Below are positions 4,104 to 56,196 of a DNA stretch of 64,000 bases, in pieces. Origin of the DNA: Bacteroidetes bacterium HGW-Bacteroidetes-17. GTDB lineage: Bacteria; Bacteroidota; Bacteroidia; Bacteroidales; GCA-2711565. The stretch's first letter is position 1. Each line of letters opens with the position of its first letter. The notes beneath the pieces are model-generated. The model saw only the letters and a list, made by a program, of their open reading frames with translations. It ran no database searches and was not told the origin of the DNA. The translations under genes were made by a program, and so were the position numbers. The stretch covers positions 5,412 through 69,411 of the forward strand of contig PHDM01000001.1 of the NCBI GenBank assembly GCA_002840985.1, written 5' to 3'.

Positions 4104-6605
4104 ATGAAAAAGACTACCTTCTTCATTATCCTAATCATTTTATTTGTTTCAGGCACAAAAATTTCATTTTCACAAAATTCTGAAAACTGGCTTGAAAAAA
4201 ACGACCCTATTTCTTATGCAAAATTGTATCTGCATACCGATCGAGACATTTATTTTCAGGGCGATACCATTTGGTTTAAGGCATATTACCTGAATGGGCA
4301 AACACAGGTTTTATGGCCCGGATTTTATAATTTATTTGTTGATATAGTGGATGAAAGTGGGAAAACCATCCACACTCAGGTATTGCCCATAACCAATGGC
4401 TTAAGCTCCGGGTATGTAAAAATCCATAATAAGTTAGAGTCGGGAAGCTATTTGTTGCGTGCACTTACAAATGCACAAAAGCAGATTGGCGAAGATGCTT
4501 ATTTTTATAAAACGATTGAAATCTTTAAGATTCGAAATTCACCAGCACCTGAAGATAAAAAAACGGAAGGGCAAACACAGGAGTCAGATGGTCCGGATAT
4601 TTCCTTTTTACCGGAAGGAGGCTTTTTGCTTGCAGGACAGGTCAATCTTGTTGGCATAAAAGCCATTAACCCGAGAGGAAAAGGACTGACGATAAAAGGG
4701 AAGGTTATTGATTCAAAAGGCAGGGTTGTTTCAACTTTCAGCACTGCTTATAAAGGATTGGGGAAGTTATATTTAAGCCCTCATGTTGGAGAAACTTATC
4801 GGGTGGAGATTGAAGAGTTCCCGGATTTCAAATATGAATTCAAGGAGGTTAAACAAGAAGGGATCAAGATTGAATTTATGAGTGACAGCAAGGAAGGATT
4901 GATATTCAGGTCAACGACCAACGCAGAAACATATAAAGAAAAGAATTATTACTTCGCCATCATGAACAAGGGAAGGGTTTTGTTTTATCAGAGGTTTACC
5001 CAAAGGAAAAATGATGCCTTGATTAAGGTAAACCCAACAGATTTACTTGGAGGGATCAATCGGGTCATTTTAATGGATGCACAACTGAAGCCAATTTCGG
5101 AAAGGCTCATTTTTTCAAATAACTATGAAATTAACCAAGTGCAAATTGTTTCAAATCAGGAACAATATCAATCAAGGAGCCGGGTTGATTTGGGAATTAT
5201 AGATGAAGAAGATATAGGAAATTCCTTCTCAAGTCTATCGCTTTCAGTAGTTGATGAAAATACGGTAGTGAAAAATGAACCTTCACTAAATATTTTATCA
5301 TATCTGTTGATTGACTCGGAACTAAAAGGAATTGTGGAATCGCCATCCGATTATTTTATTGATGATGAAAATATCTTCTCAGAAGAAAAACTAAACCTGC
5401 TTATGCTCACACAGGGATGGAGCAATTATGTATGGAATGGATTGACCTCTCAAAATACAAGCTTAACTTATTTAGAAGATGGAGGAATAACGATAAAAGG
5501 GAGGGTCAAGCGCTTGTTTAATCAGAATCCCGTTACTGGAGGAAATGTAATTTTAGGGATCATAAAGAATGGTTCTTTTGCAACTTATGAAGCGAAAACT
5601 GATATCGATGGGAGGTTTTTGTTTAAGGATATGATCCTTACCGATACTTCATCGATTTATGTTCAGGCTACGAACAGTAAAGGAAAGAAAGTTACAGAGG
5701 TAGTATTAGATTCGATTTTTGAGAAAAGCCCGATTGTTTCCGGGTTATTCCTGAAAGCTATAAAAAGCGACACCAAATTACCACCCTTATTGCATCGCAA
5801 TAAATATAACAGTGAATTGGCCATGACTGCGTATGATCCTAATTACAAAGGCATCATGCTTGAGGAAGTGATTGTTAAAGCAGATAGAATTGAAGAAGAT
5901 GATGTCGCTTTCAGAGTATATCCGAAACCGAGAGTATCTTTGAAACCCGGAGTTGAGGCAGCTTCGTATCCAGACGTCCTCAGTTACTTATCAGCCGGTG
6001 CACCAGGTGCAAGAGTAGCTAATGGGGAGATTGCCATTCGTGGCCTGGGAAGCTTTTCTAGCTCAGCTCCATTGTTTCTGGTTGATGGATTTCCTATATT
6101 TATTGTTCCAGCTGATAGTAGAGGAAGGTCACCCCATCCTGAAGCTGCAACATCTATTTATAACATTATTAAAAGTATTCCAATGATGGATATTGATCGG
6201 ATTGAAATATATAAAGATGCGAATGAAACGGCATGGTTTGGCATGAGAGGAATGCATGGGGTTATCTCAATTTATACCAAGCAAGGACCTGAGGATAGAA
6301 AAGAAAACCCTTACACTAAAGGGGCCATTGCATCAACTATTGTTGGTTATGCAGGCTACCGTGAGTTTTATTCACCAAAATATACGGTGGGGGATATTGA
6401 TTCAAAAAGACCGGACAACCGTGTCACTTTATACTGGAATCCAGATATCATTACCAAAAATGGCAAGGCTTCTTTATCCTTTTTTACCTCAGATGATATA
6501 GCGAACTATAAAATATTTGTAGAAGGAATAACCAATGATGGAAGGGTTTGTGTTGGGAACGCTGAATTTTCGGTTAATGAATATAGTCCTAAAATATTAA
6601 AATAA
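4104..6605 (+). CDS. Large secreted protein with MG2-like N-terminus, carboxypeptidase-regulatory-like domain and TonB-receptor Plug-like domain (no obvious barrel)
   Basis: Signal peptide MKKTTFFIILIILFVSGTKISFSQ. YLHTDRDIYFQGDTIWFKAY block (macroglobulin MG2-like). GGITIKGRVK..GGNVILG..TDIDGRFLF block (CarbopepD_reg-like). IAIRGLGSFSSSAPLFLVDGFPI block (Plug-like). Confidence 0.6.
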   Translation: MKKTTFFIILIILFVSGTKISFSQNSENWLEKNDPISYAKLYLHTDRDIYFQGDTIWFKAYYLNGQTQVLWPGFYNLFVDIVDESGKTIHTQVLPITNGLSSGYVKIHNKLESGSYLLRALTNAQKQIGEDAYFYKTIEIFKIRNSPAPEDKKTEGQTQESDGPDISFLPEGGFLLAGQVNLVGIKAINPRGKGLTIKGKVIDSKGRVVSTFSTAYKGLGKLYLSPHVGETYRVEIEEFPDFKYEFKEVKQEGIKIEFMSDSKEGLIFRSTTNAETYKEKNYYFAIMNKGRVLFYQRFTQRKNDALIKVNPTDLLGGINRVILMDAQLKPISERLIFSNNYEINQVQIVSNQEQYQSRSRVDLGIIDEEDIGNSFSSLSLSVVDENTVVKNEPSLNILSYLLIDSELKGIVESPSDYFIDDENIFSEEKLNLLMLTQGWSNYVWNGLTSQNTSLTYLEDGGITIKGRVKRLFNQNPVTGGNVILGIIKNGSFATYEAKTDIDGRFLFKDMILTDTSSIYVQATNSKGKKVTEVVLDSIFEKSPIVSGLFLKAIKSDTKLPPLLHRNKYNSELAMTAYDPNYKGIMLEEVIVKADRIEEDDVAFRVYPKPRVSLKPGVEAASYPDVLSYLSAGAPGARVANGEIAIRGLGSFSSSAPLFLVDGFPIFIVPADSRGRSPHPEAATSIYNIIKSIPMMDIDRIEIYKDANETAWFGMRGMHGVISIYTKQGPEDRKENPYTKGAIASTIVGYAGYREFYSPKYTVGDIDSKRPDNRVTLYWNPDIITKNGKASLSFFTSDDIANYKIFVEGITNDGRVCVGNAEFSVNEYSPKILK

Positions 6606-35190: not shown

Positions 35191-35601
35191 TTAAGAAGTG
35201 ATTTCAGTTCTGGTAATTTTGGCCACCAAATTTGATGTCGGATCAGGGCATCTTACATATTCCGTTGTAATCCCATCCTGATTAATCAGTTTTTCGTAAG
35301 GTGTTCCTTCGTATTTCCAGGTAAGGGTTACATCGTTTTCCAACAATCTTAAAAAGTCATTCAAACTGGTACGAAGCCAGGGGCAAATTTTACCAAAATC
35401 GGCCGGATATTCAAATTTGTCGCCCTTTTTATGGCACCAGGTATCTTCGCGGGCTTCATAAATTTCGATCTCGATTTTAAATCGTCTTCGTTTTTTAGGT
35501 TGATCCTGTTCCTGAGCAATAGCACTATTGACAAGAAATGGTGCCGCTGTAAGGCCTATCATCCCACATCCGGCTTTTTTAATAAAATCGGTACGGTCCA
35601 T
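35191..35601 (-). CDS. TIGR04076-like small Cys-containing protein with an N-terminal Tat-like/signal segment
   Basis: FKIEIEIYE..WCHKKGDKFEYP..GKICPWLRTSL...YVRCPDP pattern as I recall for the TIGR04076 family. N-terminus DRTDFIKKAGCGMIGLTAAPFLVNSAIAQ. Confidence 0.5.
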   Translation of the reverse strand: MDRTDFIKKAGCGMIGLTAAPFLVNSAIAQEQDQPKKRRRFKIEIEIYEAREDTWCHKKGDKFEYPADFGKICPWLRTSLNDFLRLLENDVTLTWKYEGTPYEKLINQDGITTEYVRCPDPTSNLVAKITRTEITS

Positions 35602-35674: not shown

Positions 35675-35857
35675 CTACATTCCCATATACTTAAAGGCTT
35701 CGTAAACCATAAAGGCCGGCCAAACTATTGCTTTAAGGAAACCAAGCACACCCATCCAAAAACTGCCGGCGGTTGAAATAAAATAGATGGCTGCACCAAT
35801 AAAGCCCAAACCATAAACTGCTCCTGAGGAAGCATTGTTGTGAATTTCTTTTTTCAT
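35675..35857 (-). CDS. Small two-helix membrane protein (hypothetical)
   Basis: 60 aa with two hydrophobic helices (GLGFIGAAIYFI.. and WMGVLGFLKAIVWPAFMV). No antisense competitor ORF. Confidence 0.45.
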   Translation of the reverse strand: MKKEIHNNASSGAVYGLGFIGAAIYFISTAGSFWMGVLGFLKAIVWPAFMVYEAFKYMGM

Positions 35858-35981
35858 ATTATTGTTTTATTTAGGTTTAAAAAGGAATCTAAGATAATTA
35901 TTTTTTTTAGTTTGAAGGAGTTTCAATGGTTGGTAAAATTGTTTGGATTCTAATCTCAGTTCTTTGTTATGCCGTTGTGCG

Positions 35982-36329
35982 TTATTCTAAATCAATAATT
36001 ATTTGTATGTTTTCTTTGACCAATTCTATCAAGTTCTTTGGTAAGTCTCCAACTTTATTTATTAGTCTTTTATTATCTATGGAACGAATTTGATCGATCA
36101 TGACATCGCAGTCCTGATTTAGATCAGCCATTCCTTTTTTTAGATGAACTCTTAATATTTCAGAGTCCTTTTTTATGTTTGTCGTGATAGGACAAACAAT
36201 AGTTGAAGGATGAGGGATTTTGTTCAGCAAATTAGTCTGGACGACTAAAACAGGTCTGGTTTTCCCAGGTTCTGTTCCAATCTGTGGATTTAGGTCAGCT
36301 ATCCATATTTCAAATTGTTTAATCAACAT
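35982..36329 (-). CDS. Type II toxin, PemK/MazF-family mRNA interferase
   Basis: IKQFEIWIADLNPQIGTEPGKTRPVLVVQTN..CPITT is the MazF/PemK fold signature. The ATG at 36329 is preferred and overlaps the antitoxin stop by 11 nt. Confidence 0.85.
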   Translation of the reverse strand: MLIKQFEIWIADLNPQIGTEPGKTRPVLVVQTNLLNKIPHPSTIVCPITTNIKKDSEILRVHLKKGMADLNQDCDVMIDQIRSIDNKRLINKVGDLPKNLIELVKENIQIIIDLE

Positions 36330-36549
36330 ATTCAATCTCCTCAAAATCTTTAAGTACAGACATTGAATCACTTTTAACTAATTCTGATTCGCTCTTTAGT
36401 TTTTTCTCAATAATTAATCGTCTCTGAATTTGGTTGTAATATTCCAGAGCCTCGTTAATATACCTATTTCTAGGTTTTTTCATTCTCAAGAGAATTTTTT
36501 CAGTTTCCACGAAAATAGAATCGTCAATTTTTAATGAGATAGTTTTCAT
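36319..36549 (-). CDS. Antitoxin, ribbon-helix-helix (CopG-like)
   Basis: 76 aa. MKTISLKIDDSIF...RNRYINEALEYY (RHH beta-strand + helices). Located immediately upstream of, and overlapping, the MazF-like gene. Confidence 0.7.
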   Translation of the reverse strand: MKTISLKIDDSIFVETEKILLRMKKPRNRYINEALEYYNQIQRRLIIEKKLKSESELVKSDSMSVLKDFEEIEYVD

Positions 36550-36609
36550 AATATTTTTGTTTTATACCACAAAAGTATATCATAAAAGCATATACTCCAA
36601 GTCTTTTTT

Positions 36610-36730
36610 GCATGCGGCATAACGGTTTGGAGCGCAGCGCATTTTGCGGCAGGTTTTCCTTTCCCCCGAGGGACAGGAAACAATACGAAAACCCTAAGGT
36701 TTTTATACCTGGCTTAGCGCCATGCTTTAT
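36610..36730. repeat. Cassette-boundary repeat A (long palindromic variant)
   Basis: GCATGCGGCATAACGGTTTGGAGCGC ... GGTTTTTATACCTGGCTTAGCGCCATGCTTTAT. Inner 11-bp hairpin TTTCCTTTCCC (36655-36665) / GGGACAGGAAA (36670-36680). Its ends resemble repeats B, C and D. Confidence 0.55.
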
Positions 36731-36755
36731 GATCCTTTGTAATGTAACTTTAATA

Positions 36756-37877
36756 TTAGTTTTTTGTCATGTATTGACTGATTTTTTTTTCGAAATTTCC
36801 AGTAAAATAACCTTCCCACTGTTCGACAATTTTTCCTTCGGGATTTATTAAAAAATATGTAGGAAATCCCAAAATTCCATATTTAAAACCAATTCCTGCA
36901 ATTATGCCTTTGCTATCAGAAATGTTTACCCAAGGAACATCATCTCTTTTTAAGCCTTCCTCCCAAATTTCTTCTTTTGTGTCAAGATTAAAACCTACAA
37001 TTATTAAATTATCTGTGTATTTTGAATGAATCTCTTTTAATTCCGGGATTGATTGAATACAAGGACCACAATTTGTTGCCCAAAAATCAATAAGTATATA
37101 TTTACCTTTAAAATCTGATAATTTGAATCTATTACCATTAATATCATATCCTTCAAAATCTGTTAGCTGATCACCTACTTGGGGTGGTTCTTGTTTGTTC
37201 AGAATGGATAATATTCCTTCAGCATACAAGGAATGAATATAGGTTGAATCAAATCTCTTATATACTTCACTTACTCTATCTTTTGGGATACTATTTTTAG
37301 AGGCAAGAATATAATAAAGCTTTTCTATAGCAATAAAACTGTTAGGCTTTTTTTCAATAGCATTAAATTCGATGCTGTTTTTGATTTTGTAAATTGAATC
37401 AATTTTAAAATTTACAACTTTAATAATATCTTTATTCTCTCTGTTTTTTGATCGAATTAATGCAAGGCTATCAATCTTTCTGGATAAATGTTTCGTGTTT
37501 TGAGTTATTTCATTTAAAATCTTTTGTTCAACCGTTTCACTTTCAACTGACCAAGATGATAAAAAAATGTTATCTCCTTTTACAAATATTTTTTGATAAT
37601 CAACCCATAGATCACAAGTTCCTCTAAAATTATTATAATCTCGAATCATTAAATACATTTTAATGGGGCTTTGAGATAACGTGTCTGAAAATTCAAAATA
37701 TCCATCAAAGATTGTATCAGTTTTAATTCTACTAGCTGATCCATCGTTTTCTGCATAAAGATCGATTATCGTTTCATTAGGTATGTTTCTGAGTTGACCC
37801 GAGATAACATATTTTTCTTGTTTTTTTTGACAAGATATTATGCTTATTAATAAGAGAATAAATAAGATTTTTTTCAT
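36756..37877 (-). CDS. TlpA/AhpC-TSA family thiol:disulfide oxidoreductase lipoprotein
   Basis: Lipobox LLISIISC. N-terminal beta domain, then a thioredoxin fold with FWATNCGPC (CxxC) and GFPTYFLINPEGKIV. Confidence 0.8.
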   Translation of the reverse strand: MKKILFILLLISIISCQKKQEKYVISGQLRNIPNETIIDLYAENDGSASRIKTDTIFDGYFEFSDTLSQSPIKMYLMIRDYNNFRGTCDLWVDYQKIFVKGDNIFLSSWSVESETVEQKILNEITQNTKHLSRKIDSLALIRSKNRENKDIIKVVNFKIDSIYKIKNSIEFNAIEKKPNSFIAIEKLYYILASKNSIPKDRVSEVYKRFDSTYIHSLYAEGILSILNKQEPPQVGDQLTDFEGYDINGNRFKLSDFKGKYILIDFWATNCGPCIQSIPELKEIHSKYTDNLIIVGFNLDTKEEIWEEGLKRDDVPWVNISDSKGIIAGIGFKYGILGFPTYFLINPEGKIVEQWEGYFTGNFEKKISQYMTKN

Positions 37878-37907
37878 AACAATTTAAATTTGTGTTCTTT
37901 AATTTTT

Positions 37908-37964
37908 ACACAACGTTTCAGCCGGGTAAGAATCCGCAAATGTTTTATAGCCTTTTTTATGCGC
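37908..37964. repeat. Cassette-boundary repeat B
   Basis: ACACAACG-TTTCAGCCGGGTAAGAATCCGCAAATGTTTTATAGCC-ttttt-TATGCGC. The 37-nt core is 33/37 identical to repeat C. Confidence 0.7.
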
Positions 37965-38015
37965 TGTTACTTATTATTAATTTCAAAACAGTCTTTTAAA
38001 TTTCTACAAAAATTA

Positions 38016-38552
38016 TTAATTTGGGTCTGAGAATTCATCAACTTCAATTAGTTCAACTTCAAATACTACAGTATATTTTTCTTTTAGTTTCGGTATGATG
38101 GCCCAGTTCATGGCATCATGCCCAATAGAGGGAATATTTAAGTATTCAATTTTTATTGAATACTTAATTGTTTTATTTAATGGGTTGTCAATTATTCTGT
38201 AGTTAAAACGTACATAGCTGCTCGGTGTATGAATATATTTCCCAATGATAGATTGTTTGTTAAAATCAAATGGAGGTAATGTAGCTGTTTCACACCCAAT
38301 CTGGTTTCTGCTAAGCTGAGCAATTGTATATGCACCAAATTCTTGATAGGCTGCATTATCAGTAAAAATTACCTCCCTTTGATATGCTTCACCTTTAGGA
38401 CTAAAGCAATTATAGAATGGATGGTTAATAAAATCAACTTGATCTGTAATGTCAGTAATGAATAAATCTTCTTTGTCATTACAAGTTGTAAAGAGCAAAA
38501 TAAAAAAAACACTTATCAGATTAAGATAAATGAAGAAATTTCGATTTTTCAT
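38016..38552 (-). CDS. Hypothetical lipoprotein
   Basis: 178 aa, lipobox LLFTTC, no recognisable domain. AT-rich. Confidence 0.6.
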   Translation of the reverse strand: MKNRNFFIYLNLISVFFILLFTTCNDKEDLFITDITDQVDFINHPFYNCFSPKGEAYQREVIFTDNAAYQEFGAYTIAQLSRNQIGCETATLPPFDFNKQSIIGKYIHTPSSYVRFNYRIIDNPLNKTIKYSIKIEYLNIPSIGHDAMNWAIIPKLKEKYTVVFEVELIEVDEFSDPN

Positions 38553-38570
38553 GGTTTATAATGTTTAATT

Positions 38571-38626
38571 GCGCATAGCGTTTCAGCCGGGTACAAACCC
38601 GCCAATGTTTTATAGCCGTTGTCGTG
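38571..38626. repeat. Cassette-boundary repeat C
   Basis: GCGCATA-gcg-TTTCAGCCGGGTACAAACCCGCCAATGTTTTATAGCC-GTTGTCGTG. Abuts the stop codon of the Roco gene. Confidence 0.7.
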
Positions 38627-38627
38627 T

Positions 38628-40592
38628 TTAGTTTTTTTTCATTTTCTTAAAATAGTCTTCAATTAACTTATTTATATTTATACCAAGACCAAAAAAGTTT
38701 GGTTGAAGCAATATGTATTTGTTAATTTGTTTTTTTGCAATCTCAGGATCATTATATTGTTTAGAAATTTCTGAGACAATTTTGTGAATTTCCTTAATTA
38801 ATTCTTTTTCATCTTCAATTGGTTCAAAATATCCCAGTAATTTACTTATTTCTATATCGCTAATACTTTTTAAGCATTCAATAGTTTTCTTGTTTTTTGA
38901 CTGAAACTTTCGCAAAGTGGAATAATTAAATAAGTGTGGATTATTAGACTCTTTACATTCTTCACAAATGCAATGAATCATTTCATTTACTTCTGGATTG
39001 TTTAAAGATTTATGAATATAATTCATGTCTTTTCTGATGATACTTAGAACGTCTGATTTATTTTCTCCATAAATAAATACATTGATTTTTTTATTTAAAT
39101 AGTCATTAATCAAAAGTGCTTGTGAACCTTCGTACATGATCAAAACTCCGTTTCTCCAAAAAATCTTATTTTTAATCAAATGATGATTTAATACAATAAA
39201 TCTTGTAAGAATAGCTTTGGGCATGAAAGAATAGTGATATTCAAATTTTAGATTATTTTGATAATCCCAAGGTATTTTTTCTATTGATTCAGGCAGTAAT
39301 TCAGGAATAATATATTCTTTAGAATCTGAGATTTCAAAACATAACTCAAATTTTTTCATGAGTTCCAATAAATATATATGGTTTTCTCTTGGGTAACTCT
39401 TCCAAAATGTGAGCAAGTCATTATAGTTAAACTGTCCAAAATTTTCAATAACCTCTTTCGTGTCTGTTAAAGAATAGACTGCATTTGTTGCCCATTCAGG
39501 TTTTAAGAAAATTATTTCTTTTAATATTGGATTTCCTTGAAAATGCAAGAATACACCCAAATCATGATAATATCTACTGAGAAATAAGGCTGAGCTCTCG
39601 TCAAGTGCATAATCAGAACAAATAGAGATGTATTCATTGAAATTCAAATAGTTTTTCTCCAGCGATTGTAAATGAATTCTTATATCAATCCATGCCTTTG
39701 GTAAAGAGTCTCCAATATGTTCAAGTTTAAATACTTCACTTTTAATACATTCAATTAAGCTTTCAATCCCAATATTGTTTTTTGCGCTAACATTATAAAA
39801 CCCAACAATGTTTGGGAAGTATTTCATTAGGCTTTTTTCATCTAAATTTTTAACTCTTTTATCAACTTTATTCTGAACTATAATAACTGGGGATGAATCA
39901 CTTAAAAGTTTAATAATGTTTAACCAATAATCTATACTAATATATTTATCTTCTTTTATTGAATCCCAAACAAAAATATATAAAGATCGTTTTGTTAAAA
40001 AAAACTGATGAGTTGAATGATATATTTCTTGTCCACCAAAATCCCAAATATTAATTTTAAAGTCATTTATATCATTGATATCTAATTTTAGTGTTTTTAT
40101 TTCAATTCCTTCTGTAGATGTGATTTCTTTGTTAAAGTTATTGTAAAGAATCCTATGCATCAAGGTGCTTTTTCCAACATATCCTTCTCCAACAATTAAT
40201 AGTTTTGCTTCAAACACTTTAGATTCATCAGATTCTAATTGTATGAAATAATTTTTAATTGCATCAAGACCTTGATTTACTATTTCAATTGGTGGTTCAA
40301 TCAAAGGATTGCCGCTAATTTCAAGTCTTTTCAAGTTTGGTAGAAAAACTAACTCTTTTGGAATTTTTTTTATTGAGTTATAACTTAATTTAATGCTTTC
40401 TAAATTCTCAAGTATTTTAATGTCTTTCGGAATTTCTGTAATATCATTATCAACCAAGTCAATAGATTTTAACCAAGAGAATTCCAATAAATCTATTGGG
40501 AAATAATTAAGTTGAATACCACTTAAATATATGTCTTTAATGACTTTGTTATCCTTAACTATTTTAAGTATATTTTTTGCTTCTAGATTCAT
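38628..40592 (-). CDS. Roco-family protein: LRR + Roc (Ras-of-complex) GTPase + COR domain
   Basis: About 4 N-terminal LRRs (LKSIDLVDNDITEIP, LESIKLSYNSIKKIP, LKRLEISGNPL). GTPase motifs LLIVGEGYVGKST (G1), WDFGGQ (G3), VQNKVD (G4), VSAK (G5). A long COR-like region follows, with a C-terminal CICEECK cluster. Confidence 0.8.
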   Translation of the reverse strand: MNLEAKNILKIVKDNKVIKDIYLSGIQLNYFPIDLLEFSWLKSIDLVDNDITEIPKDIKILENLESIKLSYNSIKKIPKELVFLPNLKRLEISGNPLIEPPIEIVNQGLDAIKNYFIQLESDESKVFEAKLLIVGEGYVGKSTLMHRILYNNFNKEITSTEGIEIKTLKLDINDINDFKINIWDFGGQEIYHSTHQFFLTKRSLYIFVWDSIKEDKYISIDYWLNIIKLLSDSSPVIIVQNKVDKRVKNLDEKSLMKYFPNIVGFYNVSAKNNIGIESLIECIKSEVFKLEHIGDSLPKAWIDIRIHLQSLEKNYLNFNEYISICSDYALDESSALFLSRYYHDLGVFLHFQGNPILKEIIFLKPEWATNAVYSLTDTKEVIENFGQFNYNDLLTFWKSYPRENHIYLLELMKKFELCFEISDSKEYIIPELLPESIEKIPWDYQNNLKFEYHYSFMPKAILTRFIVLNHHLIKNKIFWRNGVLIMYEGSQALLINDYLNKKINVFIYGENKSDVLSIIRKDMNYIHKSLNNPEVNEMIHCICEECKESNNPHLFNYSTLRKFQSKNKKTIECLKSISDIEISKLLGYFEPIEDEKELIKEIHKIVSEISKQYNDPEIAKKQINKYILLQPNFFGLGININKLIEDYFKKMKKN

Positions 40593-40869
40593 ATATTTTT
40601 AATACAGTTCTTAGTTTGATGGTATCGCTTTAAAAATTAAACACAACTAGTATATCTATTCATGTTTACAGAACAATACATCCCGTATTCGCGTGTATCA
40701 TTCATATTTCGTATAATTTTATTTATAAAATTTTTAATCATTCATCATGATTTAAATTTTTAAACGGGGAGAAAGTCAAATATATAAAAAAATATGATGC
40801 CTTCATTAAATGGTTTTTGATTAATGTAAGGTGATCGGTAGGAAAGTTATTTGAGTAAATTATCATTGA

Positions 40870-41026
40870 GACTTCTCGAAAATATAAATGGGAGAAGTCA
40901 AAAAAAAAATAAGACTTCTCTAAAGTAGAGCTTCAGGGACGACGTCCCCGGATGGGGACGTTGTCCCTCATATGGGACTTCTCAAAAATATAAATGAGAG
41001 AAGTCAAAATTGAAATGGGAGAAGTC
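40870..41026. repeat. GACTTCTC / GAGAAGTC hairpin-iteron array flanking a 15-bp GC-rich hairpin
   Basis: Two 36-nt hairpin units GACTTCTC-N14-GAGAAGTC (40870-40899 and 40976-41005). Lone GACTTCTC at 40913-40920. Lone GAGAAGTC at 41019-41026. Central hairpin AGGGACGACGTCCCC (40935-40949) / GGGGACGTTGTCCCT (40954-40968). Confidence 0.85.
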
Positions 41027-41114
41027 AAAAGTTGAGATGGAAGCAGTGTAAATTTTAAATTGCATTTGATATTCCTATGTAAGAATGAATTTCTGACAAA
41101 TTTAGATTCCGGTC

Positions 41115-41146
41115 AAAAAAAAAAAGCCCCGAAATTTCGGGGCCTT
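41115..41146 (-). terminator. Rho-independent terminator of the rubrerythrin-like gene
   Basis: Perfect palindrome GCCCCGAAATTTCGGGGC (41126-41143), followed on the minus strand by an 11-nt T-run. Confidence 0.9.
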
Positions 41147-41170
41147 TACTTATTAAAACATCAACCTGCT

Positions 41171-41830
41171 TTATGAATCGAGCGTAGTTATCTTGATGAA
41201 TTTTTCGGAGCCGGTCATTGATATTCCACATCGCTTTGGGGATTCGGTATCGTAGGTATTTCCACAGGTAGGACATACATAAAACACGCTTGGCAATGAG
41301 CTCACTTTATTGTTTTCTAATGCAGCAAGTGCATTTTCGTAAAGCGGTTTGTGCTTTTGTTCGGTTTTATAAGCATAATTCAAGCTTATCAGTGCGAATT
41401 GATTTCCTGCTTTATTTGCGTTGACCAAAAATTCGGGATACATGGTGGTGATTTCATAAGTCTCACCTTTAATTGCATCCATCAAATTTTCTTTGGTAGA
41501 ATTTACAGTAAATTCAGGGGTAAATTCAGGTGCTTTTTGTCCGCCTTCGGTTAATACGGCCTTGTGATTATTGGCATGTATTTTCTCCGAAATAGAAGCT
41601 GTTTTAAATAATAATGCAATTTCGTGGTATCCTTCTGCTTCTGCTTTTTTGCTGTATTCAGCGTACTTGGCACTTGCAGTGGTTTCACCAATGTAAGCCG
41701 ATTTCATGTTTTCGAAATTCAAGGTTTTTGCATCTTGTGCGTTTGCCTGTTTTTCGTTACTGATGCTTGTGAACGATTGCAACAATATTGCTGTTGCAGC
41801 TAAAATCATAATTATTGATATTTTTTTCAT
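41171..41830 (-). CDS. Rubrerythrin-family (ferritin-like di-iron) protein with N-terminal signal peptide and degenerate C-terminal rubredoxin-like tail
   Basis: Signal-like MKKISIIMILAATAILLQSFTSIS. IGETTASAKYAEYSKKAEAEGYHEIA, two ExxH motifs (SEKIH, EQKH). C-terminus YVCPTCGNTY..KRCG has only 3 Cys. Confidence 0.75.
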   Translation of the reverse strand: MKKISIIMILAATAILLQSFTSISNEKQANAQDAKTLNFENMKSAYIGETTASAKYAEYSKKAEAEGYHEIALLFKTASISEKIHANNHKAVLTEGGQKAPEFTPEFTVNSTKENLMDAIKGETYEITTMYPEFLVNANKAGNQFALISLNYAYKTEQKHKPLYENALAALENNKVSSLPSVFYVCPTCGNTYDTESPKRCGISMTGSEKFIKITTLDS

Positions 41831-41893
41831 GTTGAATATTTTTTATAAGTTTTGTTTAATGATGCAAAGATGCACCCATTCGTATTCGAACAT

Positions 41894-41925
41894 CCTTAAG
41901 CAATTCTTAAAATTTGCTTAAGAAA
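41894..41925 (-). promoter_or_regulatory. Three CTTAA direct repeats at exact 11-bp spacing upstream of the rubrerythrin-like gene (candidate OmpR-family response-regulator site)
   Basis: CTTAA at 41895, 41906 and 41917. The 23-mer 41903-41925 ATTCTTAAAATTTGCTTAAGAAA is 20/23 identical to 44547-44569. Confidence 0.5.
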
Positions 41926-41926
41926 C

Positions 41927-43303
41927 TCAGGACGGGAACTGTAAGTTGAAGGTAGTTCCGATGCCGATCCGGCTTTCTACCTCTAATTTGATGTTTTGTA
42001 TTTCGGCCAGTTTTTTAACAATGGAAAGTCCCAATCCGTTTCCTTTGATCATTGAGCTTCTGGAAGCATCGGCCCGATAAAAACGGTCGAACACTTTCGG
42101 AAGGTTTTCTTCCGAAATTCCAATTCCATCATCCTTAATCGATAGGGTTTTCAGGGTATCATCCCAATTCAGGAAAAGATTGCCGTTCATGTTTCCATAC
42201 TTCAGTCCGTTATTGATCAGGTTGGCAAGGATGAGTTCGACATAAAGTTTATCGCCCCATACCATCACCTTTTTGGGCAGTTGCTGATGAATGGTGATGT
42301 TCTTTTCTCCGGCAATTTTTTTGCATTTTGTGAAAAATACAGCAATGGTATCCGATAAATTGATTTGTTCCCTTTTGATGGTCAGTTGATCCGAATCAAT
42401 ACGGGCGATTTGCAACAATTGTTCGAGTAAAAGATCAAGGCGGTCGACCTGTTCGATGATGGTGGTAATTTTTTCTTCATAAACATGGGCTTCGCGAGGC
42501 CTGCGGATTAACACCTCGAGCGTACCCCGAATCGCCGAAAGCGGGGTCCTTATTTCGTGCGAAGCATCACTTGTAAATTGTTTTTGTTGGACCATGCTTC
42601 TTTCAATTCGCGCAAGTAATTCGTTGATTGTTTGCATTAACTGATACAATTCGTCTTTGTGTGCAGGCAAATCGAGTCGCGTACTTATATTTGAATCGCT
42701 TATTCCCGAAGCCGTTTTGATGAGCTGATGAACAGGTTTGATAGCCCTGGAGGCAGCGATTGAAGAAGCATAAAACTGAACCAAAAGAACAATCGGAAAG
42801 CTGCCAAACAATACCCAAATCAAATTGTTCAGGATCGCATGCGATTCCTGTTGCGACACGGCAATTGTGATTTGCCCAAGCGTATTTCCACCATCGTTTT
42901 TTAGAAGAAATTGACCCAGTCGGATTTTTTGCCCGTTAATTTCTCCATTAAAAAAGGAATCTTTATCATTGAGCGATCCATCTGATATTTGCCCTTCAGC
43001 CAAATTAGTCGAACGAAAAATGATTTTACCGCTGATATCCTGAATCTGAAAAAAAGTAGGATTTACTTCCACCTGGTTATGCTCGGCTTCTTCCCATTCG
43101 GGCATTTTATTGATGATGATAGAATCCTGAATGATCAACAGATTGCTTATTACTTCTTCTTTCTCTAATAAAATGTCTTCATCTAAATGAGAATACGCGG
43201 TTGTGTTTACAACAAAATAAATGACAAAAAATACCAATACCGTAATGATTGCTACAGCAAGGGTATTAAAAAGGGCAATTCGATTTTTGAATTTCAAACT
43301 CAT
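41927..43303 (-). CDS. Sensor histidine kinase (two TM, HAMP, HisKA, HATPase_c; heavy-metal/CusS-like architecture)
   Basis: H-box FTSDASHEIRTPLSAI. N/G boxes LINNGLKYG, DDGIGI, GNGLGLSIV. 458 aa. Confidence 0.85.
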   Translation of the reverse strand: MSLKFKNRIALFNTLAVAIITVLVFFVIYFVVNTTAYSHLDEDILLEKEEVISNLLIIQDSIIINKMPEWEEAEHNQVEVNPTFFQIQDISGKIIFRSTNLAEGQISDGSLNDKDSFFNGEINGQKIRLGQFLLKNDGGNTLGQITIAVSQQESHAILNNLIWVLFGSFPIVLLVQFYASSIAASRAIKPVHQLIKTASGISDSNISTRLDLPAHKDELYQLMQTINELLARIERSMVQQKQFTSDASHEIRTPLSAIRGTLEVLIRRPREAHVYEEKITTIIEQVDRLDLLLEQLLQIARIDSDQLTIKREQINLSDTIAVFFTKCKKIAGEKNITIHQQLPKKVMVWGDKLYVELILANLINNGLKYGNMNGNLFLNWDDTLKTLSIKDDGIGISEENLPKVFDRFYRADASRSSMIKGNGLGLSIVKKLAEIQNIKLEVESRIGIGTTFNLQFPS

Positions 43304-43977
43304 TCGTCATCTTCTATTTTGTATCCAATTCCGCGAACCGTAGTAATGATTGAGGGTTTGCCCGGTTCGTCGAGTTTTTTACGCAAGGCATTGATATAAA
43401 CATCAATCACAGAGGTGTCGTAATCAAAATGGATGTCCCAAACTTTTTCGATTATTCCGGTACGACGGCATACTTTGCCTTTATTGCGTAAAAAATATTC
43501 GAGTAACGAAAATTCTTTTTGAGTGAGTTCAACGGGAACCCCTTTTTTCGTAACCGAGTGTTTATCGATATCCAATTCGATTCCGGCTGCTGAAAAAAGA
43601 AAGGGTTGGGTTTCATTTTTGCGCATGTGTACCCGAATCCTGGCCAGCAGCTCCTCGAATGAAAAAGGTTTACGGATATAATCGTTGGCTCCGGCTTCTA
43701 ATCCAAAAATAACATCGTCAACCGTATCTTTTGCTGTTAGAAAAATGATGGGAACGACAGTGTTTTCTTTTCGGATATTACGGCAAATTTCAATTCCGTT
43801 AAGCCCCGGTAGCATCCAATCAAGTAAGATTACATCGTACTCTTCAACAAAATCGAGAGCAAGTTGCAATCCTTCTTTTCCATTGTCGGAAACATCTACA
43901 GCAAAGCCTTCTTCCTGTAATCCATCACGAATAAAATTAGCGATGGATGTTTCGTCTTCTACAATAAGTATGCGCAT
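43300..43977 (-). CDS. OmpR/PhoB-family response regulator
   Basis: MRILIVEDE, LLDWMLPG (phospho-acceptor Asp), winged-helix C-terminus TVRGIGYKI. 4-nt overlap with the kinase gene. Confidence 0.9.
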   Translation of the reverse strand: MRILIVEDETSIANFIRDGLQEEGFAVDVSDNGKEGLQLALDFVEEYDVILLDWMLPGLNGIEICRNIRKENTVVPIIFLTAKDTVDDVIFGLEAGANDYIRKPFSFEELLARIRVHMRKNETQPFLFSAAGIELDIDKHSVTKKGVPVELTQKEFSLLEYFLRNKGKVCRRTGIIEKVWDIHFDYDTSVIDVYINALRKKLDEPGKPSIITTVRGIGYKIEDDE

Positions 43978-44019
43978 GATATTTTATTGGCTTGATTGTA
44001 TCAAAGGTACAGAAATCCA

Positions 44020-44490
44020 TTAATCTATATCCAAATCGGCACCAAAATCGGGGAGTGACAATTCTACTCCGGCAGCATGCCGGTAAACCAATTGTCCGCC
44101 TAAATAACCTGTAGTTCCAACTGCTCCTACCAAAACTGTAAATAAGAATATAATAGCCCATTTTGTCCATTTCCGATTGTATTTAAAATAAGAAATGGCA
44201 ACCTTAAATAAGGATACAATAATCGCAAGCCATAAGGTGATGGTAGCTGCTTGTTCGTGAAGTTCAAGTGGTGCCTTAAGCGGGCCTTCTTCAATCCCTT
44301 CGCCTGCAAAATTGCCACTGATGTAAGCTACTATGGCACTTAAAGCACCAATGAGCAGAAGATACATTGCTGCATTTTTAAAAAAATCTTTTTTACTGAA
44401 GAGTGCAATCATTTCCGACAAAAAACCCACCATTATCAGGGCAATCGGGAAATGAATTACCATTGCGTGTAAATGTGTTGCTGAGATCAT
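44020..44490 (-). CDS. DUF2231-like four-helix membrane protein, first gene of the two-component operon
   Basis: THLHAMVIHFPIALIMVGFL N-terminus typical of DUF2231. 156 aa, 4 TM. Confidence 0.65.
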   Translation of the reverse strand: MISATHLHAMVIHFPIALIMVGFLSEMIALFSKKDFFKNAAMYLLLIGALSAIVAYISGNFAGEGIEEGPLKAPLELHEQAATITLWLAIIVSLFKVAISYFKYNRKWTKWAIIFLFTVLVGAVGTTGYLGGQLVYRHAAGVELSLPDFGADLDID

Positions 44491-44528
44491 AGTTTTTTAA
44501 TTTTAAGGCAAAATTAAATGCTGAAGGA

Positions 44529-44569
44529 TTTAAGAAGGATTAGGAGATTCTTAAGATTAGCTTAAAAAA
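44529..44569 (-). promoter_or_regulatory. CTTAA direct repeats (11-bp phase) upstream of the DUF2231-RR-HK operon
   Basis: CTTAA at 44550 and 44561. Degenerate ATTAG at 44539 and TTTAA at 44529. 23-mer ATTCTTAAGATTAGCTTAAAAAA (44547-44569). Confidence 0.5.
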
Positions 44570-44705
44570 ACAGAATTCCCTGATTTTTTTAAGGATAATC
44601 CGGTATTAAAATCCAATCACAAATCCTTTAAATAATAAAAATAACAAAATATGTTGAATAATTCGATATGTGTTGGTAATTCTTATCGATCAATAATTGA
44701 ATTTG

Positions 44706-45818
44706 TCAAACAATTTGCCCCTGATCTATAATAAGTTTATCCCCTTCTTGAATTCGTTTGTAATGACAAAACAACAAATCCCCATTTTCTTCATTGCGAA
44801 GGTGCATGCCGTTTCCTTCACAGTATTTAAAAAATTCACAATCGGCGCATTCACCGGTCCTTGTCCAGCTTCGATCCCTGAATTTGGCGTATTTGTTTTC
44901 CCAGATCTCTTTAAAACTGTCGGTATAAATATTACCTTGTATGAAATTGGACCTTAAATTCGGGCAGGCCGAAATGGAGCCATCGATAAGAACGGATGCA
45001 ATATTTATTCCGGCCCTGCAAAAGAATAAATTATCCCTGACTTCGGCCTCATAAGCACCTAAAAATCCTTCACAGCCATAATTGAGCTTGATATGACCCT
45101 TTTTACGTTCGGCTGCCATGAAATCGAAAAGTTGCTTAAACTGAACCGGATTTAATTGCAATTCTTCATATTCTTTAGCTCTTCCGATAGGAAAAACGGT
45201 AAATATGCGCCACTCTTTTAACCCTTTTGAAAGGAGCAGTTCTTTTATTTTTCCCAGTTCATGAAAGTTTTTTTGATTTACACAGGTCACCACATCGAAT
45301 CTCAGGTCGGGGATTTTTGCCAGGAGCCCGATTGCACTGACTGCTTTTTCAAAACTATGTGGATTGCCCCTCAGCCAATTATGCGATTCTTCCAGTCCAT
45401 CCAGACTGATGGTAACCGACCTTAGCCCCGCTTCCAGTAAAGAGCTGATCCGGCTCGGTGTTAGATGAAGTCCGTTCGAAACCATCCCCCAGGGAAAACC
45501 CCGGTCGTAAAGTTGTTTTCCGCAAACTTCCAGGTCTTTTCGCAAAAGTGGTTCGCCTCCGGTAAAAACGATCATGGTATTGTTCGGTTCAACGATGCTT
45601 TTAATGTCCTCAATGGCTCCGATAAAATCCTTGATGGGCATGTCTTTAACCATCGCATCTTTGGTGCAATCGCTGCCGCAATGCAAACAGTTGAGGTTGC
45701 ATCGAAGGGTACATTCCCAAAATATATAACTCAGTTGGTGGGTTTTTTTCGCATTGTTCCGGTACTTTTTAAAAAGTTCCAGTGCCATTTTTTTACGCAA
45801 GGAGAGTTTTAAACTCAT
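44706..45818 (-). CDS. Radical SAM / SPASM-domain protein (lipoprotein-associated)
   Basis: CTLRCNLNCLHC (CX3CX2C), GGEPLL, C-terminal auxiliary-cluster cysteines FFCRAG..ACPN..GECADCEFFKYCEG..FCH. The start overlaps the upstream lipoprotein stop (ATGA). Confidence 0.9.
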   Translation of the reverse strand: MSLKLSLRKKMALELFKKYRNNAKKTHQLSYIFWECTLRCNLNCLHCGSDCTKDAMVKDMPIKDFIGAIEDIKSIVEPNNTMIVFTGGEPLLRKDLEVCGKQLYDRGFPWGMVSNGLHLTPSRISSLLEAGLRSVTISLDGLEESHNWLRGNPHSFEKAVSAIGLLAKIPDLRFDVVTCVNQKNFHELGKIKELLLSKGLKEWRIFTVFPIGRAKEYEELQLNPVQFKQLFDFMAAERKKGHIKLNYGCEGFLGAYEAEVRDNLFFCRAGINIASVLIDGSISACPNLRSNFIQGNIYTDSFKEIWENKYAKFRDRSWTRTGECADCEFFKYCEGNGMHLRNEENGDLLFCHYKRIQEGDKLIIDQGQIV

Positions 45819-55777: not shown

Positions 55778-55831
55778 TTAACGGATTTCAACTAAACAAA
55801 AAAAACTGACCAATGGTCAGCTTTTTTGTTG

Positions 55832-56196
55832 TGGAGCTGCAGGGATTCGAACCCTGGTCCAAACAAGCAGTCAAAACGCTTTCTACATGCTTATCCTTTA
55901 GTTGATTGTCGGGAGATAACCGATGAAAGGCACACCTATTATCACCTTAGTCTTTTTATTTCGCTCGTGCACCAAGACCTTGCAAAAGCTAGCTCAACAT
56001 TTATGATGCTTCGGTCGGGACACCGTTAAGCGAGGTTTCCCGGGAAGCAGTAAGCGGCTTAATCTCTAGACTAAGCGGCTAACGCGTAATGATTGTCGCC
56101 AGTTAATGGCTGTGAGAATTAGGATTAACGAGGCATATTCACAACCCTCGGCATGCTTACATCTCCACTTCCTTGCTGTCAAAACCGGTCAGCCCC
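55832..56196 (-). ncRNA. ssrA: tmRNA (SsrA), tag reading frame GDNHYALAA-stop
   Basis: The minus strand starts GGGGCTGACCGGTTTTGACAGC and ends GGACCAGGGTTCGAATCCCTGCAGCTCCA (T-arm + acceptor with G3:U wobble; CCA not encoded). Tag ORF GGC GAC AAT CAT TAC GCG TTA GCC GCT TAG at 56100-56071. Terminator hairpin CTGAC/GTCAG at 55806-55820. Confidence 0.93.

Follow-up and report, generated by a model that had tools for sequence, protein, structure and literature searches.

We examined a 64-kb stretch of DNA (hereafter the window, meaning the whole stretch) from the groundwater metagenome-assembled genome (MAG) Bacteroidetes bacterium HGW-Bacteroidetes-17, in which positions 35925-40789, read on the minus strand, probably form a small and partly decayed integron-type gene-cassette array, degenerate and CALIN-like. 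We are confident that the locus is a site-specific cassette array, and we consider it likely that the array is specifically of the integron type, that is, recombined by an IntI-like enzyme acting on a folded strand at G|TT. In integrons, a cassette consists of an open reading frame (ORF) and a downstream attC site, and cassettes are exchanged at G|TT (PMC2811028, PMC4889954). A first-pass annotation made from the sequence alone had described four minus-strand units, each followed downstream by a related repeat (A to D), and had proposed a site-specific cassette array without a nearby recombinase. All four repeats were found where it had placed them, and this much of the proposal was supported: the locus has integron-type features, and no integrase was found among the window ORFs of 230-540 aa. 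In the direction of the genes, which is that of the minus strand, the order is leader, Roco GTPase cassette, 178-aa cassette, TlpA-like cassette, antitoxin/MazF cassette and trailer, each cassette consisting of an ORF and its own attC-like site.

These repeats belong to a family of sites that is intact in another organism. Repeats B and C share a 37-nt core in the same orientation, identical at 33 of 37 positions as first described, and this core occurs exactly twice in the window (37916-37952 and 38581-38617, plus strand), where shuffled sequences lead one to expect none. The core pattern, validated on the window beforehand, was searched against one genome for each of 185,579 species and matched in only two places, both inside a cassette array of OY775914.1, the closed 4.05-Mb chromosome of a Bacteroidales MAG whose DNA is unrelated to that of the window. 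In this chromosome the core makes up the final ~45 nt of 133-nt elements, which start ..YAAC-GGTTT-GGCTATGAAAC.. and end ..GTTTTATAGCC-GTT-GTTRNNN. Sites of this family are 132-157 nt long and densely spaced, with 24 in two 8-kb loci, at least 40 over 28.7 kb in the large array (loci L013 plus L010, 2,596,135-2,627,318) and seven in a second array 1.3 Mb away (L006). In each array the sites lie on one strand between small ORFs; nine of ten such ORFs tested had no Pfam match, and several are toxin-antitoxin pairs.

An alignment of 19 OY775914.1 sites yielded a consensus hairpin with a 7-bp R box, an unpaired spacer, an L stem of 15-17 bp and a variable centre that comprises at least four types and optional inserts. 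Across its 24 pairs, 96.1% of cells were paired, compared to 87.1% after shuffling and 31-57% with slid partners, and ten pairs showed compensatory changes. As in attC sites, the family conserves its structure more strongly than its sequence; A retains most of this structure, and B and C do not. Among 44 distinct sites, the terminal AAC and GTT triplets were invariant, the fourth base of the last box was a purine without exception, and the strand antisense to the ORFs was always the better folded (-30.7 vs. -27.2 kcal/mol), with four invariant G.T pairs at positions that would be A.C mismatches on the other strand. The earlier remark that clean RYYYAAC/GTTRRRY sites are lacking is thus accurate for the window copies, whose AAC...GTT triplets are partly mutated, but not for their relatives.

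Flank complementarity of the kind first noticed around B and C recurred in 28 of 28 cassettes. What follows each site in gene direction (GTTRNNNNN..) recurs as its reverse complement in the opening box of the next site (..NNNNNYAAC), the match beginning directly at GTT/AAC in every one of the 28. The match was 12.25/14 for the 28 true pairs, compared to 7.4/14 for mismatched ones, and the four window cassettes gave 12, 10, 8 and 9 of 14. Duplicated inter-site segments (32 pairs) were informative as well: the downstream site was 94% identical and the upstream site 72%, a relation that held in 28 of 32. Because of the end complementarity and the co-inheritance of the downstream site, the unit can be defined as an ORF together with the site downstream of it, with exchange at G|TT. 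The same linkage analysis ruled out the converse arrangement, in which the plus strand is the top strand and the genes are inverted relative to their sites. If the integron paradigm applies, the antisense strand would fold into an imperfect hairpin (R box, unpaired spacer, long L stem, variable centre), an IntI-type tyrosine recombinase would exchange strands at G|TT (AA|C on the folded strand), and cassettes would be excised as circles and then re-inserted. Exchange at this point, with excision and re-insertion of circles, would account for the first 9-14 nt of each cassette being the reverse complement of its own site's opening box.

The four window cassettes show this organization in various states of damage. 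The first (38579-40646, minus strand, 26.5% GC) carries a 654-aa LRR-Roc-COR GTPase recognized by Pfam (ORF 38628-40592) and site C, and when its start, GTTGTGTTTAATTT, is set against the box that opens its own site, GTCGTGTTTAGTTT, in reverse complement, 12 of 14 positions agree without gaps. Site C (38579-38627, minus strand) is one-armed and consists of the box ACACGAC, the spacer AAC, the arm GGCTATAAAAC..GGCTGAAAC and the last box GCTATGC, so that AAC has become GAC in the first box and GTT has become GCT in the last. Its arm is 94-98% identical to one arm of the long OY775914.1 sites, and the second arm is missing. The second cassette (37914-38578, minus strand) encodes the orphan 178-aa protein (ORF 38016-38552), which has no Pfam or NCBIfam family match. 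It opens with (G)CTATGCGC (GCTATGCGC), which pairs with its own first box, GCGCATAAA, at site B over seven contiguous bases and at 10 of 14 positions; relatives have an uncorrupted counterpart of this box, GCGCATAAC, and two related contigs (L008 and L007, introduced below) carry an unmutated GTTATGCGC at the cassette start. Site B (37914-37962, minus strand), also one-armed, has the box GCATAAA, the spacer AAA, the same arm GGCTATAAAAC..GGCTGAAAC and an intact last box, G|TTGTGT; its first-box AAC has become AAA. The flanks of the two cores read as first annotated, ACACAAC-G-core-TTTTTTATGCGC for B and GCGCATAGCG-core-GTTGTCGTG for C.

The third cassette (36623-37913, minus strand, 1291 nt) carries a 373-aa thiol-disulfide oxidoreductase with a TlpA/ResA-like thioredoxin fold, supported by Pfam and NCBIfam (ORF 36756-37877), and site A. 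The cassette starts with GTTGTGTAA and site A opens with TTACATTAC, a match of 7/9 (8/14). Site A is the only full-length site, extends over 36617-36745, and has the plus strand as its folding strand. Its GCATAAC box is intact and the opposite box reads GTAATGT, GTT having changed to GTA (TAC on the other strand), and one arm has lost 7 nt. A covariance model built from the OY775914.1 sites detected A at 77 bits (E 1.6e-18) as the sole significant match in 64 kb; its fold reaches -21.9 kcal/mol compared to the family mean of -30.7, and the strand asymmetry is lost. The fourth cassette (35975-36622, minus strand) contains a 76-aa putative antitoxin (ORF 36319-36549) that overlaps the start of a 115-aa MazF/PemK toxin (ORF 35982-36329; PF02452, E 2.4e-29), the arrangement of a type II toxin-antitoxin pair, in which a PemK/MazF domain protein has a small overlapping partner gene upstream. 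The cassette opens with GTTATGCCG, which agrees with the CGGCATAAC box of D in all 9 of 9 positions (9/14), and it appears to have its own promoter-like sequence, TACTTTTG. D consists of the first box of a last site only (CGGCATAAC, 35966-35974), followed by the spacer AAA and the trailer with the terminal sequence GAACTGAGATTAGAATCCAAACAATTTTACC (35925-35974 in all, minus strand). B and C are related as had been proposed; A belongs to a different subtype, is related to them at the family level only and has the extent given above instead of the one first annotated, and D is longer than 18 nt, reaching ~35925. The gene identities first assigned held for the Roco GTPase, the orphan, the TlpA-like protein and MazF; the ribbon-helix-helix fold of the antitoxin was not confirmed, as the 76-aa ORF has no family match in Pfam or NCBIfam. 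The AT-richness judged by eye was confirmed by computation: GC content is 28.5% over 35966-40646 compared to 37.2% and 38.8% in the 10-kb flanks, and 26-31% per cassette in a genome of 37% GC.

Several features point to decay. The triplets are intact in the leader (GTT), in B (GTTGTGT), in A (GTTATGC) and in D (..ATAAC) and are mutated in C (GAC, GCT), B (AAA) and A (TAC). Triplet mutation alone does not prove inactivity, since IntI1 tolerates single changes (PMC2811028). The loss of an arm is of another kind. B and C align with a single arm of the long 'e4' subtype and run from ..GGCTGAAAC-G directly into the next cassette; folded as DNA or as hairpins they gave no significant structure and no R/L hairpin, because the second arm is missing. 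This excludes B and C as self-contained attC hairpins or as terminators, and tandem duplication was excluded as their origin, the flanking genes being unrelated. Arm loss removes the folded substrate, and the most that such sites could offer is a double-stranded G|TT target. B, C and two sites of L008 share the truncation point, where the long form reads GAAAC-GTGGG; its true end reads AAACC-GTT. The short form may have arisen by deletion between the microhomologies AAACG and AAACCG, or by exchange at an internal pseudo-site, GAAAC-G|TGGG. With A damaged, B and C one-armed, D reduced to a box and no integrase nearby, the window array is probably frozen or movable only in trans.

We also compared the window with related strains, as the first-pass annotation had suggested. 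The 178-aa protein has three homologues, in L008 (98% protein identity), a contig of a strain ~97% identical to the window at the DNA level, in L007 (63%), a locus of another genome, and in L006 of OY775914.1 (71%). L008 lacks exactly the 1291-nt TlpA cassette: its 178-aa cassette is joined to the toxin-antitoxin cassette through ..GAAAC-G|TTATGCTGCATGC, where the window reads G|TTGTGT..TlpA..site A..AAACC-G|TTATGCCGCATGC. A cassette-sized indel therefore lies exactly at site edges, with G|TT at either end. Where the window has Roco and C ahead of the 178-aa cassette, L008 carries a different gene with a further short site, and homology resumes at G|TTATGCGC. In L007 the homologous cassette stands behind a long site ending ..AAAACC-G|TTATGCGCAATTAAA, and in L006 it is the last cassette, behind an IS3 insertion (an IS3-family transposase occupies L006 8718-9946, between the last full site and the homologue). 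Homology of the 178-aa cassette begins at G|TT in these other contexts. At the level of sequence comparison, that a single cassette turns up in four contexts and is delimited by G|TT speaks directly for the mobility of cassettes.

The array also has recognizable ends. A conserved leader (40648-40789, minus strand) contains a promoter-like block, TATATATTTGACTTTCTCCCCG (40765-40786), as well as ATACACGCG and TATATATTTGAYTTTCTCCCCG, and ends in ATATACTA-G|TT. The head of the L006 array (4236-4373) matches it at ~71% identity, and the last 162 nt of L009, a contig of a related strain, are 98% identical to it over the stretch in which the two overlap. Within TATATATTTGACTTTCTCCCCG lies the Bacteroidetes -7 promoter motif TAnnTTTG, and the leader element TATATTTG may be a promoter. 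At the junction (ATATACTA-G|TTGTGT; G|TT at 40645-40647, minus strand) the first cassette begins with TT. Leader conservation between the window and L006 ends at this G|TT; past the shared ATATACTA-GTT junction, the first cassettes of the two arrays are unrelated. Judged from this pattern, the leader end behaves like an attI. At the opposite end, D is followed by AAA-GAACTGAGATTAGAATCCAAAC.., and homologous sequence follows the last L006 cassette (CCTAAC-AAA-GAACCGAGCTAAAATCCAAACCATTTAAAC).

A number of observations weigh against an integron-type array, among them that no integrase was found. Pfam detected no tyrosine recombinase among window ORFs of 230-540 aa and no integron integrase in loci L001, L006, L010 and L013, although the walk along the large array, made from known sites by exact-protein look-ups, covered ~30 kb and did not reach the array head. 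The three leaders have no integrase beside them either; upstream they adjoin rubrerythrin, an HU-like gene and a radical-SAM gene, and a metagenome scan with the leader pattern returned one contig, with a radical-SAM gene upstream. Homologues of AbiTii, followed as a lead to an integrase, led only to an unrelated BREX/Gabija-type defence island. The layout of a complete integron, with intI adjacent to attI and a cassette promoter, was therefore absent from the window and from the fetched flanks of the three leaders, even though an attI-like junction and a promoter-like block are present. In addition, the box consensus beyond GTTR is not RRRY, the spacer asymmetry (5 vs. 3 nt) appears to differ from the canonical one, and neither it nor the position of the bulged bases could be confidently matched to the extrahelical bases of canonical attC sites. 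The TlpA indel is found at the edge of B even though neither B nor C is able to fold, which places a one-armed site at a recombination junction. The distal half of site B is only ~67% identical between the window and L008 where the cassette is 97% identical, and some sites in OY775914.1 are mosaics, which suggests that exchange inside sites also occurs. Finally, the trailer is conserved between arrays with differing last cassettes, which a simple cassette model does not predict. We tentatively attribute the mid-site divergence and the mosaics to homologous exchange between similar sites. The mosaics in question (L004 739-872 and 4350-4481) combine one arm of one subtype with the other arm and last box of another, with mismatches in the L stem, and suggest exchange within sites besides that at G|TT.

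The Bacteroidales/Bacteroidetes arrays could also be a distinct integron lineage, a platform without a cis-encoded integrase that is made up of tandem repeats, a Bacteroidetes-type promoter, ATATACTA-G|TT and a fixed trailer, that stands beside unrelated genes in three genomes, and that would depend on a recombinase gene located elsewhere, perhaps one other than a canonical IntI, with one-armed sites still usable as double-stranded targets. We regard this as a possibility of low probability. The tandem repeats lie between the rubrerythrin terminator and the leader (window 40865-41060, minus-strand view), where five to six direct repeats TTTTGACTTCTC(C/T)CAT.. occur with inverted GAGAAGTC copies and a GC-rich hairpin, GGGACAACGTCCCCATCCGGGGACGTCGTCCC. 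They are retained in L009 (4400-4510), analogous tandem AATTCCACAGGGTA repeats precede small ORFs at L011 6200-6500, and the TTTTGACTTCTC repeats may be protein-binding sites of the platform. L009, which is 91% identical to the window, lacks a 3.6-kb block of it (41102-44726, encoding a DUF2231 protein, a response regulator, a histidine kinase and rubrerythrin), and there the repeats and leader directly follow a radical-SAM/SPASM gene.

A second, similarly unlikely possibility concerns only the one-armed short sites (B, C, two in L008 and one in L007), which might be a maintained functional variant, namely double-stranded attI-like or secondary targets for a trans-encoded integrase. Five sites with different cassettes in three genomes share the same truncation point (..GAAAC-G|), the AAC and GTT triplets are intact in the L008 copies, and the TlpA indel falls at the G|TT of a short site. 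The known tolerance of IntI1 for single-triplet mutations (PMC2811028), and the documented insertion at non-att GTT targets (bioRxiv 10.1101/2022.09.11.507474), also fit. However, none of 47 OY775914.1 sites is one-armed, the window copies have mutated triplets, recurrent microhomology deletion around a hairpin arm would look alike, and decay is known to leave truncated attC sites and fused cassettes (PMC4670013).

The first-pass annotation had gone further and read B and C as hybrid sites. On that reading, a tyrosine or serine recombinase unrelated to integrons would cross over inside the 37-nt core, and B and C would be attL/attR-like products of a circular 178-aa cassette (Y'-core-Y) entering an X-core-X' site. 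The geometry X-core-Y ... Y'-core-X' is indeed present, the drop in identity between the window and L008 falls in mid site B and not only at its edge, site bodies in OY775914.1 are mosaic (L004 739 and 4350), and no IntI was found. However, the core is the retained arm of a truncated hairpin from a family of longer ones, and exchange falls at G|TT, the 3' edge of each site: the 178-aa homology in L008 and L007 starts there and not within the arm, the TlpA indel is bounded by G|TT on both sides, and end complementarity runs from GTT/AAC onward in all 28 cassettes. The supposed flank swap has simpler origins. Y/Y' (TATGCGC/GCGCATA) is the ordinary pairing of the 178-aa cassette's first bases with the opening box of its own site; X, the first box of site C, pairs with the Roco start at 12/14, and X' opens the TlpA cassette. 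These last two are alike (9/14) only because the Roco and TlpA cassettes both use a recurrent GTTGTGT box type that is repeated in OY775914.1. Since mid-site mosaicism is compatible with homologous exchange between similar sites, we consider crossover within the core improbable. Least credible of all is that the repeats are plain intergenic palindromes (REP/MITE-like or terminator hairpins) with no role in mobility in a conventional horizontally acquired AT-rich island: every repeat does lie just past a stop codon like a terminator, the long sites are stable hairpins and the window has no recombinase, but the dispersal typical of REP, BIME or MITE repeats, which the first-pass annotation had named as a ground for rejecting its proposal, is not seen (the 64 kb contain two copies of the core and a single full-length site, each within the array, and among the 185,579 genomes only one other with the core, again inside an array), B and C do not fold and so cannot be terminators, and cassette-specific end complementarity and cassette-precise indels are foreign to REPs and terminators.

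Other searches and observations concern the content of the arrays and their surroundings. The array genes are annotated as hypothetical in the source MAG (PKP35887 and PKP35889), and PADLOC matched no defence system among the cassette proteins. A scan of viral contigs with the conserved arm of the long sites, a pattern differing from the core, gave no match. At gathering thresholds, Rfam detected only a tmRNA gene in the whole window (55829-56196, minus strand; tag peptide GDNHYALAA), which has no relation to the array, and no RNA family over the repeats. Just past the trailer, outside the array, lie two small minus-strand ORFs of ~36% GC, one of 136 aa (35191-35601) with a sub-threshold match to TIGR04076 and one of 60 aa (35675-35857) with no matches. 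In the large OY775914.1 array, a ~370-nt unit (a 233-236-nt segment plus site) is repeated eight times, and cassettes include AbiTii, HEPN (RiboL-PSP), PemK, DUF2971 and Bro-N proteins. A palindromic GC-rich insert, CCTGCCTGCCGCAGGCAGG, or a variant of it occurs in otherwise differing sites (L005 2517-2670 and 4796-4949; L004 5217-5373; L008 926-944, the last in a short site of the strain nearest the window) and looks like a mini-insertion spreading among sites. At L011 11741-13027, a group II intron reverse transcriptase adjoins the sole, weak site of that locus; an association of such introns with attC sites is known (PMC7923331).

Finally, we compared the array with known systems. Integrons are the main gene-capture platforms of Proteobacteria. 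They have been recorded in Bacteroidota, where they are rare (PMC9024848, PMC8618304, PMC9668308). The arrays described here represent a coherent attC family in Bacteroidales-type genomes, with an array of at least 40 sites and a recognizable leader, in which cassette turnover is visible between near-identical groundwater strains and the mobile cassettes include a 2-kb Roco GTPase and a TlpA-like oxidoreductase. The window array is also a worked example of decay, with one-armed sites and mutated triplets, and if the integrase proves absent or unusual the system will gain in interest.

As in sedentary chromosomal integrons, such as the Vibrio cholerae superintegron with its ~125-nt VCR attC sites, similar palindromic sites of ~130 nt follow small, mostly orphan ORFs in one orientation. 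The invariant AAC/GTT, the R box, the spacer, the covarying L stem, exchange at G|TT, complementary cassette ends and toxin-antitoxin cassettes are common to both, and the OY775914.1 array exceeds 19 sites, the size criterion of PMC4889954. It differs in that no intI was seen beside the attI-like leader in three genomes, the host is a member of the Bacteroidota, the box consensus is only GTTR and the end complementarity is longer (9-14 nt); the window array, moreover, has only four cassettes with damaged sites.

An array counts as a CALIN if the IntegronFinder covariance model calls two or more attC sites in it and no intI lies within 4 kb. The window array resembles one in having cassettes with attC-type sites and no integrase within reach, and it is best filed as CALIN-like, formal CALIN status resting on IntegronFinder's own model. 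It has one full-length site, our family model calls only A, and B, C and D were recognized by alignment; it also retains the conserved leader with its promoter-like element and attI-like junction. CALINs, a name for attC clusters that have no integron integrase, are seen as parts of integrons that have degraded or depend on functions in trans (Cury et al. 2016, PMC4889954). B and C look similar to the truncated attC sites of fused cassettes in class 1 integrons, where partial loss of attC joins neighbours and separate mobility is lost (PMC4670013); here, in contrast, one hairpin arm is lost and both terminal boxes are kept, and the truncation point recurs across cassettes and strains. The TlpA cassette with site A may have entered at the bare G|TT of a one-armed site, to judge from the one indel, in the manner of integrase-mediated insertion at secondary or attG sites (bioRxiv 10.1101/2022.09.11.507474; relaxed GTT, PMC2811028). 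Overall, a known mechanism is extended to a new host group, in which recurrent one-armed truncation, a conserved leader and trailer with no integrase next to them, and a cassette encoding a Roco GTPase are the distinctive features.

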